The position numbers were made by a program, and so were the translations under genes. From an uncultured Gemmataceae bacterium (GTDB lineage Bacteria > Planctomycetota > Planctomycetia > Gemmatales > Gemmataceae): 64,000 nucleotides of DNA. This document shows, piece by piece, positions 18,058 through 39,351 of this stretch. Numbering within the stretch: position 1 is the first letter of the stretch; every line of letters starts with the position of its first letter. The stretch spans positions 1,728,001 to 1,792,000 of the forward strand of contig CAVVPN010000011.1 of NCBI GenBank assembly GCA_963750165.1, written 5' to 3'. The notes under the pieces were generated by a model. It worked only from the letters and a program-made list of their open reading frames with translations. It did not search any database and was not told the DNA's origin.

Positions 18058-19740
18058 CTAATGTGCCATCGCCACGGCGGGTTCGCTGACCATCCGGCCG
18101 TTGAGCCAGCGGTCCAGATGGCCGAAGAGCGGGCTGACCTGATCGCGGGTGACGGCGCCCATGGTGGCGATCTGCACCATGCGCTTCTCGGCGAGGTAGC
18201 CGCTCTGGCCGCCGATGGCGAAGCCCCACAGCCGGCAGCGGGCCACGAAGGCGTTGGAACCCTCCATCCCCGGCGGCGCGAACGTGGTCACCACCGGGCA
18301 GGCGTGCTCATCGCGCGCGAGCGGGTCCAGGCCCAGGCGGCGCAACTCGCCGCGGACGTAAGCCCCCAGCTCGGCGTAGCGGTCGTAGGTGGCCCGGGCG
18401 CGCGCCGGCGTCGCGTACTCCTGCAGGGCCGCCTCCAGGGCGCGCAGCGTTGGCGACGGGAAGGTGTAGCACGGCCCCTCGCTGGCCAGCGCCGCCACCA
18501 CGTCGAAGTAACTCGGCACCCGACTGCGGTCCAGTGTCTTCAGCGCCTCGGCGTCGGCGAAGATCAGCGCCCCGCCGGCGAACGAGCCGAGCGCCTTGCC
18601 AGTCGAGCCGGTCGCCATGTACACGTCGCGCAGGTCGAGCGGCACGGCGCCAAGGCTGCTGATGCAGTCGATGCAGACGCGGACGCCGTGCTTGCGGGCC
18701 ACACGGACCAGGCCAGGGAGATCGTTGAGCACGCCAGTGCTGGACTCCTGATGGACGCCCCAGACCCAGCTGCCGGCCGGCTCCTCGCGCAGCGCCGCCT
18801 CCACTTCGTCGAGGTTCCAGGGTTCGCCCCAGGGCCACTCCAGCAGCCGCGGTTGCAGGCCAAAGCGCGTCGCTTGCCGGGCCAGGCGCTGGCCGAACTC
18901 GCCAGTGCTGAGCAGCACGCCGCGACCGCGGCCAGCCGTCGCCGCCAGCGTCGCCGCCACGCTCTCGTTGGCCAGCGTGCCGCTGCCGTTGAGGATGGCC
19001 GCGGCGGGCGCGTTGACCAGCTCCGCCAGCTGGCGACGCACGGACTGGAAGCGACGGATGAACTCGGGGCCGCGGTGGTAGATCGGCGGCTCGTGGAAGG
19101 CGTCGCGCACCGCCTGCGACGTGGTGACCGGCCCCGGCAGCAGACACACCGTCTCGCGCGGCGGCAGTCCCTGACGGCGGACATGCCCCTCCCACATGCG
19201 CTTGACGCGCTGAATCTTGGCCGGCAGCGCCGCCACGTCGAGCATCATCGGCACGAACGCGGCGTTGCCACAGTGGACCGCCGGGCCGAGCGGCACGAAG
19301 CCGATTTTTTCGTACAGGTCGAGCCGCGACTCGACACCGGAGATGAACAGGTGCGTGTAGCCGTGCGCCTGCGTGTAGTGCTCCAGCGACCAGATCAGGC
19401 CGAAGAACAGCGTGCTGTTGCGCTCCTGCGGCTCGATGGCCAGCAGCCGCACCTCCAGCGGCCGGGTGCCGGGCCGCGTCAGGATGCCCGGGTCGGGCAG
19501 CCGGTCGGCGACGGAGAACGGTGGCTGATCGTGGACGCTGAGCATGCCGACGACGCGGTCGTCGCGCAGGACGATCAGGTAGTCGTTTTTACTGTGAAAT
19601 TTATCGACGAGCATCCCGGTGCCGGTGTCGGGGTGCTGCGGAATTTCGCTGACGAAGGTCCGATAATTGAGGCAGTGAATCTGCTCAAATTCCTGCCGCG
19701 TGTCCGCACATTTGAAGACGTAGTGACCGACTCGCAACAT
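18058..19740 (-). CDS. GNAT-type N-acyltransferase fused to class V PLP-dependent aminotransferase
   Basis: N-terminal EQIHCLNYRTFVSEIPQH, EVRLLAI, LYEKIGF. C-terminal LLPGPV, GSGTLANE, HQESSTG, DCISSLG, STGKAL (PLP lysine). Confidence 0.85.
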   Translation of the reverse strand: MLRVGHYVFKCADTRQEFEQIHCLNYRTFVSEIPQHPDTGTGMLVDKFHSKNDYLIVLRDDRVVGMLSVHDQPPFSVADRLPDPGILTRPGTRPLEVRLLAIEPQERNSTLFFGLIWSLEHYTQAHGYTHLFISGVESRLDLYEKIGFVPLGPAVHCGNAAFVPMMLDVAALPAKIQRVKRMWEGHVRRQGLPPRETVCLLPGPVTTSQAVRDAFHEPPIYHRGPEFIRRFQSVRRQLAELVNAPAAAILNGSGTLANESVAATLAATAGRGRGVLLSTGEFGQRLARQATRFGLQPRLLEWPWGEPWNLDEVEAALREEPAGSWVWGVHQESSTGVLNDLPGLVRVARKHGVRVCIDCISSLGAVPLDLRDVYMATGSTGKALGSFAGGALIFADAEALKTLDRSRVPSYFDVVAALASEGPCYTFPSPTLRALEAALQEYATPARARATYDRYAELGAYVRGELRRLGLDPLARDEHACPVVTTFAPPGMEGSNAFVARCRLWGFAIGGQSGYLAEKRMVQIATMGAVTRDQVSPLFGHLDRWLNGRMVSEPAVAMAH

Positions 19741-20096
19741 CCTGGACCACCTCCGACGGTGCCTCGCCCTGGCGCGCGGTGAGGGACGCAACGCCCTTCG
19801 GCGCTTGAAGGGCGCAGCCGCGCAGCACCTCGTATGGCAGAGAGGTTATAAACCTTTGCGGTAGTTTGCAAGGACTTGCTGAAAAGAGAACGATCAGAAG
19901 CTCGCCGCTTCGTTAAACCTTCTTGTTTGTAGGTTCTGCGAAAGATCTCCGGCAAGGGAGCAGGCGTTCAGGCCGTCGGAAAAGACCGCGTGTTCAGTGT
20001 TCGGAGTTCGGAGTTCGGTTTTCCGTGGTCCACGGACAGCTGCTCGATTATGATGCGGATGGGGTCTTGTCACCGAACACCATTCCGGAGGAATCC

Positions 20097-25309: not shown

Positions 25310-25677
25310 GCAGCACGCCGCGACCGCGGCCGGCCAGCGACGCCAGCGTCGCCGCCACGCTCTCATTGGCCAGCGTGCCGCCGCCGTTGAGGATGGCCGC
25401 GGCGGGCGCGTTGACCAACTCCGCCAGCTGGTGGAGCACGAACTGGAAGCGACGGATGAACTCGAGGCCGCGGTGGTAAAAGGGCGCAGCCGTCCCGGCA
25501 CCTCGTATGGCAGAGAGGTTATAGACCTTTGCGGTAGTTTGCAAGGACTTGCTGAAAAGAGAACGGTCTGAAGGCCGCCGCTTCGTTAAACCTTCTTGTT
25601 TGTAGGTTCTGCGATAGATCTCCAGCAAGGGAGCAGGCGTTCACGCCGTCGGAAAAGACCGCGTGTTCAGTGTTCGG
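25310..25677 (-). pseudogene. Diverged partial duplicate of the aminotransferase gene and its upstream region
   Basis: 25310-25478 matches 18912-19080 and 25480-25677 matches 19808-20004, with scattered substitutions. Confidence 0.9.
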
Positions 25678-25885
25678 TGTTGTGGTCCGCGGACAGGCCG
25701 ACGCCCCCACAGGGTTTCAACAATGCAGAATGCTTCTTTTTTATGAAGTTGCTGACCTGTTCCGACGAATGGATTGATGTATACTATACAAGAGAACACT
25801 AAACCTGCATTCGCCCTCAAACGCAGCGTAATCAACCAGTGGTCGCCGGCCCATTGCGGCCGGCCCTGTTCCGAGGAGGTGCATC

Positions 25886-26243
25886 ATGAAGAAGTCCGAA
25901 ACCCCGGCTGCGGACACCGCGCCGAACCGCCCCAGCGTCCAGGAGCTGACGCAGGCGCTGGCGGAGCCGTTCGAGTCCGCCGAGGTCAAGTTCAAGCCGG
26001 CGGTGGTCAGCGGCAATCGCGCCATGGCGCTGGCCTACGTCGATGCGCGCGTCATTCAAGACCGCCTGGACGATGTGCTCGGCGTCGAAGGTTGGCAGGA
26101 CGACTACGAGTGCCGCGAGGACGGCAGCGTGATTTGCCGGCTGCGGCTGCGGCTCGGCGATGAGTGGGTCACCAAGGTGGATGTGGGCGGCCCCAGCGAG
26201 CAGCCCGACGGCGGCGACCGACTCAAGGCGGCGTTCTCCGACG
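25886..26243 (+). CDS. Rad52/Rad22-family single-strand annealing protein, exon 1
   Basis: GGAGG RBS; ALAYVDARVIQDRLDDVLGVEGW...CRLRL...KVDVG...LKAAFSD, interrupted by the intron. Confidence 0.88.
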
Positions 26244-28693
26244 GTGCGCCGTGTCACGGCTGATCTCATCACCGCTTGAAGCGGTAGGGACTTGACCGAA
26301 GTCCCTGGGCCAGCGCCTAAGCCGAGTCCGAAAGGACGGAGCAAAAATAGCATGGCGTGCAGAAGCGTGGAGTGGAGTAACCGCAATACAAACTGCCACG
26401 CAGGCCCGCGTCCCAAGGCTAAGGCTAAACTGCTTGAATCCGAATCCCCAAGCGCTTATGAAGCGAGCCTCCGGAAACGCGGTTGATTACCGGATGCGGT
26501 TGGTATGCGAGGAAAAGTGCGTCGGGTTCCCCGCAAGGTCAAGCCAACCGGCGACCACAAGACAGTGAGTTCAAGGGGATGAGTCGGAAGCCTACAGGAC
26601 GCTAGAACGTGAGAGCAGTTCGGAACACGGGATTGCCTACGGGGGGCGACCCCTATGGCAACGGAGCCGCCGTAGTAGTCCGAGGTCGGGAAAGCCGGCC
26701 ACATGGCGAAGGGCGGCAGGTGTCTGAAGACCTGGCATACGAAGGCGGTGCGTGATGCACAACACCCAACGTAAAGACGCGATCCACGAGGAACGCGGCA
26801 GGCGAGGTCTGAAACTGGAACGTCTGTATCGTGAACTCTACGACCTGGACCGCTACTTGCAGGCGTACGGCAAGCTGTACCGCAACGACGGTGCCATGAC
26901 GCCCGGAGTGACGACGGAAACGGTGGACGGAACGTCGGTGGAGAAGATGCAACTGATCATCCGGCACCTGCGGGATGGCAGTTTCGGCTGGACGCCGACC
27001 AAGCGAATCCACATCCCCAAGAAAAACGGGAAGATGAGGCCGCTGGGATTACCGACGTGGTCCGACAAACTGGTCCAAGAAGTAATCCGCTCCCTCCTGG
27101 AGCCTTACTACGAGGCCAAGTTTCAGGACAGCAGCCACGGGTTCCGACCGAACCGAGGGTGCCACACCGCCCTGCAAACCTGCAAGCAGAAATTCAGGGG
27201 GGCGAGTTGGTTCATCGAAGGGGACATCAAGGGATGCTTCGACAACATCGATCACGATGTCTTGCTCGACATCCTGCGGGAATCCATCGACGATGAACGA
27301 TTCGTTCGGCTCGTCAAGGACATGCTGGAAGCGGGGTATTTGGAGGAATGGCGGTATCACGACACCCACTCGGGGACTCCCCAAGGCGGCGTGATCAGCC
27401 CCCTCCTGGCCAACGTCTACCTGCATAAACTGGACGAGTTCGTGGAAGACGTCCTGATCCCTCGACACACCCGAGGAGGAACAAGGAAGCACAACCCGGA
27501 ATACCGGAGCATCTGTGACCAGATGAAGAAGGCCAAGAAGTACGAGGACTGGAACAGCTGGTGGGAACTAAAGAAGGTGCAACGCACCCTCCCGTCCCTC
27601 AACCAAATGGACCCAGCCTTCCGGAGACTGGCCTACGTCCGTTATGCCGACGACTTCCTCCTCTCGTTCACGGGGCCAAGGTCAGAAGCCGAAGACATCA
27701 GGCAGCAAATCGGTGACTTCCTGAAAAGCACCCTGAAGCTGCAACTGTCCGAGGAAAAGACTTTGATCACCCACGCGAGGACCGAGAAAGCACGATTCCT
27801 GGGGTATGACATCACGATTATGCACGAAAATAATCAGATGTCAGCCGGCAGAAATCACGCCGGACGGTTCTTCAAACGGTCGATCAACGGGGGCGTCATG
27901 CTCTCGGTGCCCTGGGAAAAGATCGAGGCGAAGTGCCATGACTTTATGAAAGGCGACAAAATCCGCAAGCGACTCGACCAGACAACCAACGAGGACTTCT
28001 CCATCGTGGCCTGGTACGGGATCGTCTTCCGAGGCGTGGCCGAATACTACTGCATGGCACACGACCGGGCGAAGAAGCTGTCAAAGCTGAAAAACGTCAT
28101 GCAAACGTCGATGCTAAAAACTCTGGCTGCCAAGCACAAGACGAGTGTCGCTGCAATGGCAGGCAAATACAGAGTCCAACTTCAGACGCCAAATGGCGAA
28201 TACACAGCTTACCAAGTGGTGATTCCGAGAGAAGGAAAACTCCCGCTCATCGCCACCTTTGGGGGCTTCGGGCTCAGACGGCAGGACAAGGACATCAACG
28301 ACGCCCCGTCCCGTAACCGGAACGGGCGAACTGAAATCCTGGAACGACTTCTGGCAGACCAGTGCGAATACTGCGGAGCAGAAGGGGACTGCGAAGTCCA
28401 CCACATCCGCAAACTGGCGGCACTGCTGAAGCAGAAGAAGGTCACAGGATGGAAGCGGTTGATGACCATCAGAAAACGAAAGACGTTAGTTCTCTGTCAG
28501 AAATGCCACTCGGCACTACATGCCGGGAAACTGGACTAACAGAGACTCCGGAGACACTGGAGAGCCGGATGCGATGAAAGTTGCACGTCCGGTTCGGAGG
28601 GGGGCCATCGGAAAAGGGACTCATCCACGTTCGGGAACTGGTTACTGGTTGACTGTTCCCGGTATGAGTCACCTCGCCGGTGGCCTACCCTAC
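26244..28693 (+). mobile_element. Group II intron (IIA-type), 2450 nt
   Basis: 5' GTGCG; domain V GAGAGCCGGATGCGATGAAAGTTGCACGTCCGGTTCGG at ~28560; 3' end CCCTAC; removal restores the host ORF; visibly less GC-rich than the flanks. Confidence 0.95.
26755..28539 (+). CDS. ltrA: Group II intron-encoded reverse transcriptase/maturase with HNH endonuclease
   Basis: RPLGLPTWSDK, SHGFRPNRGCH, WFIEGDIKGCFDNI, GTPQGG, YVRYADD, FLGY, CEYC..EVHH...CQKCH. Confidence 0.95.
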   Translation: MHNTQRKDAIHEERGRRGLKLERLYRELYDLDRYLQAYGKLYRNDGAMTPGVTTETVDGTSVEKMQLIIRHLRDGSFGWTPTKRIHIPKKNGKMRPLGLPTWSDKLVQEVIRSLLEPYYEAKFQDSSHGFRPNRGCHTALQTCKQKFRGASWFIEGDIKGCFDNIDHDVLLDILRESIDDERFVRLVKDMLEAGYLEEWRYHDTHSGTPQGGVISPLLANVYLHKLDEFVEDVLIPRHTRGGTRKHNPEYRSICDQMKKAKKYEDWNSWWELKKVQRTLPSLNQMDPAFRRLAYVRYADDFLLSFTGPRSEAEDIRQQIGDFLKSTLKLQLSEEKTLITHARTEKARFLGYDITIMHENNQMSAGRNHAGRFFKRSINGGVMLSVPWEKIEAKCHDFMKGDKIRKRLDQTTNEDFSIVAWYGIVFRGVAEYYCMAHDRAKKLSKLKNVMQTSMLKTLAAKHKTSVAAMAGKYRVQLQTPNGEYTAYQVVIPREGKLPLIATFGGFGLRRQDKDINDAPSRNRNGRTEILERLLADQCEYCGAEGDCEVHHIRKLAALLKQKKVTGWKRLMTIRKRKTLVLCQKCHSALHAGKLD

Positions 28694-29181
28694 CGCTGAA
28701 GCGCGCCGCGGTCAAGTTCGGCATCGGCCGTTATTTGTATCGACTGCCGAACCAGTGGGTCGATTACGACATGCAGAAGCGCACCTTCGCGCGGACGCCG
28801 ACGCTGCCGGCGATGTACCTGCCGAAGAAGGCCGAGCCGGTACTTGAGGCCGCGGCCCCGGCACCGAAGCCCACCGCGAAACCCGCGGCCAAACCGGCGC
28901 CGAAGACCGCCGCCAGGGTCGCGGCGCACACACTGCCGAGCAGCGGCGACGAGTTCCAGCGGCGGTTGTACGACTATGACGCCAAGCTGGCACGCGAGGG
29001 CGTGTGTCAACCGGGTGAACTGGTCAAGCGCGTCGTCGAGGCGGGCGCGAAGGCAGGCTTCGACCCGGACCTGGCCACCTGGGACGCCCGGGGCATCACC
29101 CTGGCTGCGGAGCAGACCAAGGTGTTCGAGGCACACGCCCGGCAGCGGCCGGCACCGCCGCAGCGCAAGGAAGTCGCGTAG
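28694..29181 (+). CDS. Rad52/Rad22-family protein, exon 2
   Basis: Spliced junction GAC G|CG CTG AAG gives SDALKRAAVKFGIGRYLYRLP. Confidence 0.88.
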
Positions 29182-29186
29182 GGAAA

Positions 29187-29294
29187 AGGATTTCACCACA
29201 GAGAACGTGGAGAATGCGGAGAAAAAACAAAGAATGGCAATTTAATTCTTTTGTCGTTTCTCCGCGCACTCCGCGTTCTCTGTGGTGAAATCCT
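29187..29294. repeat. TTCACCACAGAG-family long inverted repeat between convergent genes
   Basis: GGATTTCACCACAGAGAAC...GTTCTCTGTGGTGAAATCC; related to 36896-37000 and 60703-60757. Confidence 0.8.
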
Positions 29295-29299
29295 CTTCG

Positions 29300-29863
29300 T
29301 TAACCGCCCGCCGAGCGCTGCACCTCCTGCGCCGTCTTCAACGAACTCTTCCAATCATCCACGCCCGAGCGCCAGTCGTCCACCTGCTCCGAAGGAACGA
29401 CCGCGACCAGCGTGCCGGTGACGTTCGCTAGCACCGGCGCGATCGCCGATTTCTCCAGCAATTCGTCGGTGACGGTGTGGGGGAAATTCATCATGGCCAG
29501 GAAGATGCCGCCGAGCACCACGGCGGTCTTGCCAGCGCCGAGGACGCCGCCAAGGACGCAATTCATCGTCTGCAGCTTGATCTCCTTGAGCCACTTCTCC
29601 GCGGCCAGTGAGGCGAAGTGGAACGCCAGGTACACGACCACGAACACCAGCAAATAAGCCAGCGCCCCGCTGACGCGCGGGTCCGCTTCCTGGAGCACCG
29701 CGTCGGACAGGGCACTGCTGGCCCATTCGTGCAGGGCGACCGCGGCGTAGACGCCGACACTGAGGCCGACAACGCGCGCCACCTGCATGAGCAGCCCGGA
29801 GATGGCGCCGAAGGTTGCCCCGACGCCGAGTAGAACCAGGATGATGGTGTCGAGCCAGTGCAT
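29300..29863 (-). CDS. CvpA family membrane protein
   Basis: MHWLDTIILVLL, four TM helices, LGGVLGAGK, S-x-IAP. Confidence 0.85.
   Translation of the reverse strand: MHWLDTIILVLLGVGATFGAISGLLMQVARVVGLSVGVYAAVALHEWASSALSDAVLQEADPRVSGALAYLLVFVVVYLAFHFASLAAEKWLKEIKLQTMNCVLGGVLGAGKTAVVLGGIFLAMMNFPHTVTDELLEKSAIAPVLANVTGTLVAVVPSEQVDDWRSGVDDWKSSLKTAQEVQRSAGG

Positions 29864-39278: not shown

Positions 39279-39351
<73 letters not shown>

Follow-up and report, generated by a model that had tools for sequence, protein, structure and literature searches.

An apparently intact group II intron in a planctomycete Rad52/22-family gene, likely of an old lineage that homes into conserved codons

Housekeeping genes are said rarely to carry group II introns; the same source reports such introns in recA of Geobacillus/Bacillus caldolyticus and in polC, radC, mutS-family and uvrD/rep genes of the Bacillus cereus group (PMC2504315). 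Introns of the IIA RNA type are described as going together with encoded proteins of the ML class (PMC4424553). Among the proteins of the Rad52/22 family, the chromosomally encoded DdrA is described as protecting 3' ends and as showing no annealing in vitro (PMC515370). DNA-repair genes are already known as hosts of group II introns, and the lineage and hotspot that we describe here were not found in print. A search for introns in bacterial Rad52/Sak genes returned nothing in the literature covered, with subscription journals, supplements and the intron database outside its scope.

Here, we analyze a locus of an uncultured Gemmataceae bacterium (GenBank assembly GCA_963750165.1, contig CAVVPN010000011.1) within a window of 64,000 nt. 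Our data support, with a probability of about 0.8, the reading that a single chromosomal Rad52/22-family gene carries a IIA/ML group II intron that is intact and likely mobile, and that likely belongs to an old lineage whose homing targets are conserved codons in this family of genes.

The interrupted gene and its intron

An earlier note on this DNA had proposed that removal of the intron joins two exons into an ORF of 846 nt encoding 281 aa. The coordinates proved exact (Table 1), and the joined frame has no internal stop. Although 17 junction registers within 3 nt on either side lack a stop, only the proposed junction reads S-D-A-L-K-R, the reading present in 14 of 15 intron-less relatives. 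We confirm the note's further point that the Rad52/22-family gene needs splicing to yield its full protein, because the unspliced frame stops ahead of the K-R helix.

Table 1. Features of the interrupted gene, by position in the 64,000-nt window
Feature	Position	Strand	Remarks
Tandem upstream motif, two copies	25772..25802	+	consensus TACA-N3-GTACACT; candidate LexA/SOS operator, alternatively promoter element
Exon 1, Rad52/22-family gene	25886..26243	+	119 codons + 1 nt; PF04098 E 2.6e-5; phrog_1097 E 1.7e-19
IBS2 (26231-26236) and IBS1 (26238-26243)	26231..26243	+	pairing count
Group II intron, IIA RNA type / ML protein class	26244..28693	+	2,450 nt, single copy in genome
In-frame stop ending unspliced reading (125 aa)	26261..26263	+	
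Predicted EBS2	26475..26480	+	5/6 Watson-Crick pairs with IBS2
Predicted delta (26519) and EBS1 (26520-26525)	26519..26525	+	delta pairs with first base of exon 2; EBS1 6/6 Watson-Crick pairs with IBS1
Intron-encoded protein, 594-595 aa	26752..28539	+	RT (YADD), maturase X, HNH endonuclease; Pfam RVT_1, Intron_maturas2, AI2M-like_HNH
Domain V (AGC triad) and long domain VI, bulged A at 28687	28562..28693	+	Rfam; fold z -5.6
Exon 2: remaining Rad52 domain (K-R helix, GRYLY), Pro/Ala linker, helical C-terminal domain	28694..29181	+	

The host gene belongs to the Rad52/22 family. When the exons were scanned separately against the Rad52_Rad22 profile that the note had named as a check (PF04098), exon 1 matched positions 3-55 above the cut-off (24.6 bits against 20.3), but exon 2 matched positions 119-149 below it (E 0.015); all 15 intron-less homologs match the profile, the best at E 6.8e-21. 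Among PHROGs, exon 1 matches an Erf-like ssDNA annealing protein family (phrog_1097). A model of the homolog that is 63% identical (pLDDT 84) aligns to human RAD52 with Z 12.4 and rmsd 2.5 over 123 positions, to Mgm101 with Z 11.3 and to 80a Sak with Z 10.5, so the host protein is predicted to share the RAD52 N-terminal fold. This likeness emerges from fold search only, as a PDB sequence search with the host family gave nothing significant. The junction falls in the helix just ahead of K-R, which by position likely corresponds to RAD52 K152/R153, residues reported to contact ssDNA (PMC6137706). Beyond the Rad52 domain lie the Pro/Ala linker and a helical C-terminal domain of about 70 aa, where the 15 homologs scanned have no Pfam match. 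The description of the gene as a Rad52/Sak-type annealing gene therefore stands as to family, by profile and fold. Annealing itself is a family label, and membership does not guarantee the activity because DdrA did not anneal in vitro.

This genome holds one PF04098 gene; D. radiodurans, in the control set, also matches. With a profile of 15 homologs, we detected the gene in 148 of 267 genomes of its order, mostly as a single copy, and in 85 of 121 genomes of a second planctomycete order; it was not found in the other 119 genomes of its own order. We considered and set aside a prophage Sak/Erf gene as its origin. None of the 10 flanking proteins matches a phage structural or lysis family in PHROGs (the two with any match are a beta-propeller and a radical SAM protein), which agrees with the note's remark that phage genes are missing from the flanks. 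Together with the mostly single copies in 148 genomes, this indicates that the gene is chromosomal and not part of a prophage. Synteny with cvpA was likewise discarded: of 47 loci, a single one has cvpA following the gene, and the order of the neighboring genes shows no conservation.

The intron itself has the features expected of group II. It opens with GTGCG (5' GUGYG) and closes with CCCTAC (3' AY), domain V bears an AGC triad, and the bulged A of domain VI lies 7 nt before the 3' end. Domains V and VI fold well, and Rfam Intron_gpII matches 28560-28693 at 65.7 bits (cut-off 40); the Rfam domain-I families gave no match to the intron. GC content is 57% in the intron and 69-70% in the exons and flanks. 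The predicted pairings of EBS1 and EBS2 with the end of exon 1, and of delta, the base preceding EBS1, with the first base of exon 2 (one G-C pair), use loop positions placed by analogy and by one pairwise alignment rather than by a full domain I model. Around EBS1, the stem carries compensating changes when set against a relative. IBS1-EBS1, IBS2-EBS2 and delta-delta' pairing adjoining EBS1 is the arrangement of IIA RNAs.

As the note had observed, the intron ORF retains YADD (residue 298) and the cysteine/histidine pattern of HNH. Over its whole length, the closest solved structure is LtrA (E 4.8e-121; the next RT is at E 1.4e-39), and this match, with the AI2M-like_HNH domain, marks the protein as a predicted member of the ML class. 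The NCBIfam model for group II RT/maturases (TIGR04416) is a near miss, 281.5 bits against a cut-off of 300, a shortfall outweighed by the Pfam, PDB and Rfam matches. A blastn search of the genome for further copies, as the note had advised, showed the intron to be single, with one unrelated, interrupted RT elsewhere; there is no sign of recent movement. Judged by its sequence, the intron appears free of decay and is presumably spliced.

The note had also pointed to the exon junction as a check in sequencing runs, and this did not bear fruit. Four soil runs, which contained relatives only, yielded no spliced read of this allele. Exon-joined contigs from one DNA run and one RNA run had to be rejected as proof of splicing: they are evidently intron-less alleles of other strains, because they carry other bases at the junction (CC where exon 2 has CG) and occur in the DNA run as well.

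Insertion sites in related genes

Among 75 genome loci encoding relatives of the intron protein, 74 lack Rad52 flanks. The exception, in an Isosphaeraceae MAG of the second order (locus L018, genome G268), is also the closest protein of the 75, at 69% identity. Its intron interrupts a Rad52-family homolog, 44% identical over the middle exon, at the same codon and in the same phase. With its own exon, this intron forms only 5/6 pairs through EBS1 and 4/6 through EBS2, the latter taken in the same register. The Isosphaeraceae gene consists of three exons, as its R-L-D motif is interrupted by a second, unrelated intron whose protein is about 50% identical. A metagenome fragment (L094) carries a close 3' intron end followed by A-L-K-R-A-A-V, where the exon match stops after seven codons. 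A search of metagenomes for the junction pattern gave 20 matches: 18 are without domain V and due to chance, one duplicates the Isosphaeraceae locus, and one is the fragment just described. Viral contigs yielded no junction match and two chance EBS matches, and seven distant introns lacked Rad52 flanks. No further case was seen at the DNA level in 400 other genomes of a phylum sample (E 1e-190). Loci with a partial gene match, in ten Gemmataceae genomes and in six regions of four second-order genomes, contain no such intron. One partial-match locus has about 1 kb inserted, a segment that gives no RT match.

Occupied genes can also be recognized from protein lists. Gene callers read exon 1 into the first bases of the intron, which leaves a tell-tale tail on the protein. 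We inspected 386 homologs, comprising the best 120 of 426, the best 120 of 169 and 146 further sequences from the best 150 of 5,231. Among those listed, 16 end in D-G/C-A-P/T, as expected when the reading frame runs on into GTGCG here; they take in one near-copy of the present gene and the Isosphaeraceae case. Four others end in G-R-C-A, the tail predicted for a third candidate site, which the tails place 37 nt downstream, inside the arginine codon of G-R-Y-L-Y. For tail-bearing proteins on contigs of at least 2,300 nt, the contig matches that of an intron protein in nucleotide size in 6 of 10 cases (controls, 0 of 38). Three sites and two unrelated intron lineages thus bear out the suggested preference of introns, as far as this gene is concerned. 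The three sites rank 29, 9 (this site) and 13 of 141 five-residue windows in conservation, so that the note's placement of the junction in the most conserved motif holds for the block, the most conserved one, but not for top rank.

The same site is used in homologs that are only 42-54% identical between the two orders. This recurrence argues against a one-off, poorly splicing insertion that knocked out a dispensable gene, as do an EBS1 that fits its own allele exactly and two open exons that share 63% identity with the best intact homolog across 293 columns. A knock-out would agree with the 119 genomes in which the gene was not found, with the lack of a spliced read in the four runs and with the report that many bacterial intron copies are inactive (PMC4424553). 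On balance, we regard it as unlikely.

In a tree of 98 intron proteins, the clade of this site (49 tips, support 0.995) and that of the third site (19 tips, 0.98) are sisters (0.967). Site labels are available for 4 of the 49 tips and 3 of the 19, five of these seven being assigned by equal contig size and not by DNA, and from them we infer that site specificity extends across each clade. The next branch holds an intron protein, 62% identical, that lies in an AAA-ATPase-like gene; with this relative, and with Rad52 flanks at 1 of 75 loci, target specificity is not family-wide. The target itself is conserved. In 47 Gemmataceae alleles, the bases at -4, -3 and +1 never vary, and 46 of these alleles have G at -1. 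Close relatives of the intron in the four soil runs have the EBS1 CGTCGC, which fits 26 of the 47 alleles at 6/6 (those with the commoner AGC-serine), and the EBS1 of the present copy, CGTCGG, fits its own TCC allele and 11 of the 47 at 6/6. One lineage likely colonizes planctomycete Rad52 genes, which would make this gene an old hotspot of selfish elements and not the seat of a built-in switch.

The note had raised such a switch as a reason for the intron, that is, a domesticated element whose stress-dependent splicing gates the repair protein to the benefit of the host. It is true that unspliced RNA cannot encode the full domain and that the gene has been invaded repeatedly, and for the recA intron of Geobacillus a regulatory function has been put forward (PMC2504315). 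However, the search for intron-less alleles that the note had recommended showed the intron to be missing from most relatives, and this speaks against a switch. Among the matches listed, occupied alleles number one in 148 gene-bearing genomes of this order and one in 85 of the second, a count to which 47 further matches of an order-wide profile search do not contribute and which is probably too low, as assemblies break at introns. The intron is in complete mobile form, its endonuclease and RT kept as in a selfish element, and different lineages sit at different sites. We therefore consider a conditional switch very improbable.

Upstream motif and a proposed mechanism

The tandem motif upstream of the gene raises a further possibility, which would add to the explanation by a selfish lineage and not replace it. 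If the host gene is repressed by LexA, the intron could be a hitchhiker that is expressed, as RNA and protein, chiefly in the SOS response, with its spread timed to DNA damage. The consensus derives from 48 regions that lie upstream of homologs. With this gene left out of the matrix, its copies at 25772 and 25787 score 13.6 and 12.6 bits, and the same matrix gives 14.4 bits before recA and 13.1 before lexA of this genome, two genes picked ahead of the scan; of 9,112 ORF-upstream windows, 0.11-0.18% attain 12-14 bits. The motif is likewise present before ssb (16.2) and before two tyrosine integrases (15.6); in reverse orientation, it stands before a radical SAM gene (13.4) and before a UvrC-type nuclease (10.6). 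DdrA, moreover, is described as damage-induced (PMC515370).

Several observations weigh against this coupling. In five other genomes, at least 11 bits are reached upstream of recA in one and of lexA in none, and only 2 of 29 second-order homologs have the motif at that level. Sites of at least 14 bits number 20 in the genome, not above column-shuffled matrices (10-79), many of 41 sites precede unrelated genes, and the motif core resembles a -10 box. For Ll.LtrB, constitutive SOS is reported to leave homing at 81-87% of wild type, without a rise (PMC3636086). We rate damage coupling somewhat below an even chance.

Planctomycete LexA is described as not using the E. coli motif (PMC3108266). A Verrucomicrobia-type LexA palindrome had scattered two-mismatch matches only, a palindrome search found nothing shared, a sigma-70 scan returned no promoter, and the literature searched, subscription journals and supplements being outside its scope, contained nothing on a Gemmataceae LexA box.

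In the mechanism that we propose, a host promoter would transcribe exons and intron together, and the intron protein would assist RNA folding and splicing while EBS1, EBS2 and delta pair with the exons, pairings that can be read in the sequence. Spliced mRNA would yield a 281-aa DNA-binding protein of predicted RAD52 fold; unspliced mRNA gives the 125-aa fragment without the K-R helix. The excised RNA-protein particle may then enter intron-less alleles, at a target that the alleles indicate is held constant by the protein motif. The lineage would persist because two orders conserve this target and because its cost is held low by precise splicing. Its sister appears to have moved its target 37 nt inside the same gene, and an unrelated lineage took the further site at R-L-D. 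One could envision the whole as a three-site hotspot in which a single old lineage, diversifying along with its hosts in two orders, was re-aimed by 37 nt, a promoter under a hitherto undescribed Gemmataceae LexA box (TACA-N3-GTACACT) ties intron particles to DNA damage, and the repair protein arises only after splicing. This combined account is tentative, and we doubt that it holds in all its parts.

Comparison with known systems

Two sister clades with neighboring targets in one gene would constitute a natural record of a change of site. The lineage also supplies a new RT of the LtrA class together with a new set of targets. For annotation, genes of this kind are mis-called as short fragments, and 20 of the 386 listed proteins look so. 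Our data also point to a widespread, apparently unstudied planctomycete gene of RAD52 fold and to a candidate SOS operator.

The host protein shares its PF04098 domain with DdrA, with phage Rad52-like proteins labelled Sak or Erf, with human RAD52 and with yeast Mgm101. Identity of the host family to the listed phage and plasmid members is 35-45%, and the linker and helical C-terminal domain set it apart from these proteins.

Ll.LtrB of Lactococcus lactis (IIA/ML) resides in a relaxase gene. The present intron is like it in having LtrA as the best structure match, in its RT-X-HNH layout and in exon recognition by EBS1, EBS2 and delta as given for IIA introns (PMC4424553). Unlike Ll.LtrB, it has a chromosomal Rad52-family host, another target sequence and a long domain VI. 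Like the introns of recA, polC and radC, it is an intact retroelement in a conserved DNA-repair gene, but gene family and phylum are different, and the lineage extends over two orders and the hotspot over three sites. Trichodesmium reportedly has three group II introns in a ribonucleotide reductase gene, as Liu and colleagues are said to have described in 2003 (cited in PMC4649490). There too, several group II introns share one gene of DNA metabolism, as two do in the Isosphaeraceae gene; whereas that case concerns one genome, occupancy here is patchy across many genomes.

Surroundings and C-terminal end of the host gene

Upstream of the Rad52/22-family gene that is split by the window intron, we find a candidate LexA box (see table), which in the same genome (G000) also occurs at C3:1504057, C11:29243 and C3:1361477, before recA, lexA and ssb. 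This candidate motif is weak in five other genomes. One segment of the neighboring mosaic is duplicated from 18912-19088 (92%) and the other from 19825-20008 (95%). The inverted repeat at the far end of the gene belongs to a REP/MITE-like family, with 54 matches genome-wide by blastn, both arms counted. The end of the second exon (28900-29181) encodes a conserved C-terminal domain of ~70 aa that is predicted to be helical, based on a confident model in a homolog; this domain has no Pfam match.

Features in the window and at compared loci
Feature	Location	Strand	Remark
Mosaic of two duplicated segments	window 25310-25681		just 5' of host-gene promoter
Candidate Gemmataceae LexA box, TACA-N3-GTACACT	window 25772-25802		5' of host gene
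Inverted repeat, 72-nt arms	window 29160-29321		after host-gene stop codon
tRNA gene	window 39279-39351	minus	
Rad52-family gene, three exons	L139, G268:C85:80000-95000	minus	two group II introns
Rad52-family gene, ~1 kb interruption	L149, G231:C6:577-2279		
Second group II intron remnant in G000	L287, C11:809000-813500		Rfam D1-D4 match

Interrupted Rad52-family genes elsewhere

The two introns of the Isosphaeraceae gene (L139), 2,417 and 2,423 nt long, are of different lineages and both look intact. The L149 interruption gave no match to a reverse transcriptase (RT) and is probably an insertion sequence.

Group II introns at other sites

The RT of the G000 remnant is broken by a ~2.4 kb insert carrying an ORF that we take to be recombinase-like. 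In the metagenome fragment L094, a close relative of the window intron is cut off by an opposite-strand gene that looks like a transposase gene. Other related introns (L157, L162) lie in genes that, judging from translated flanks, appear AAA-ATPase-like; one sits directly 3' of a G-K-S motif. On viral contigs, group II introns (L173, L174) apparently split genes, presumably tail-like and portal-like phage genes by their translated flanks. Many Dehalococcoidia genomes (L021-L089) carry several related introns each, at diverse coding sites, and some of these are apparently nested.
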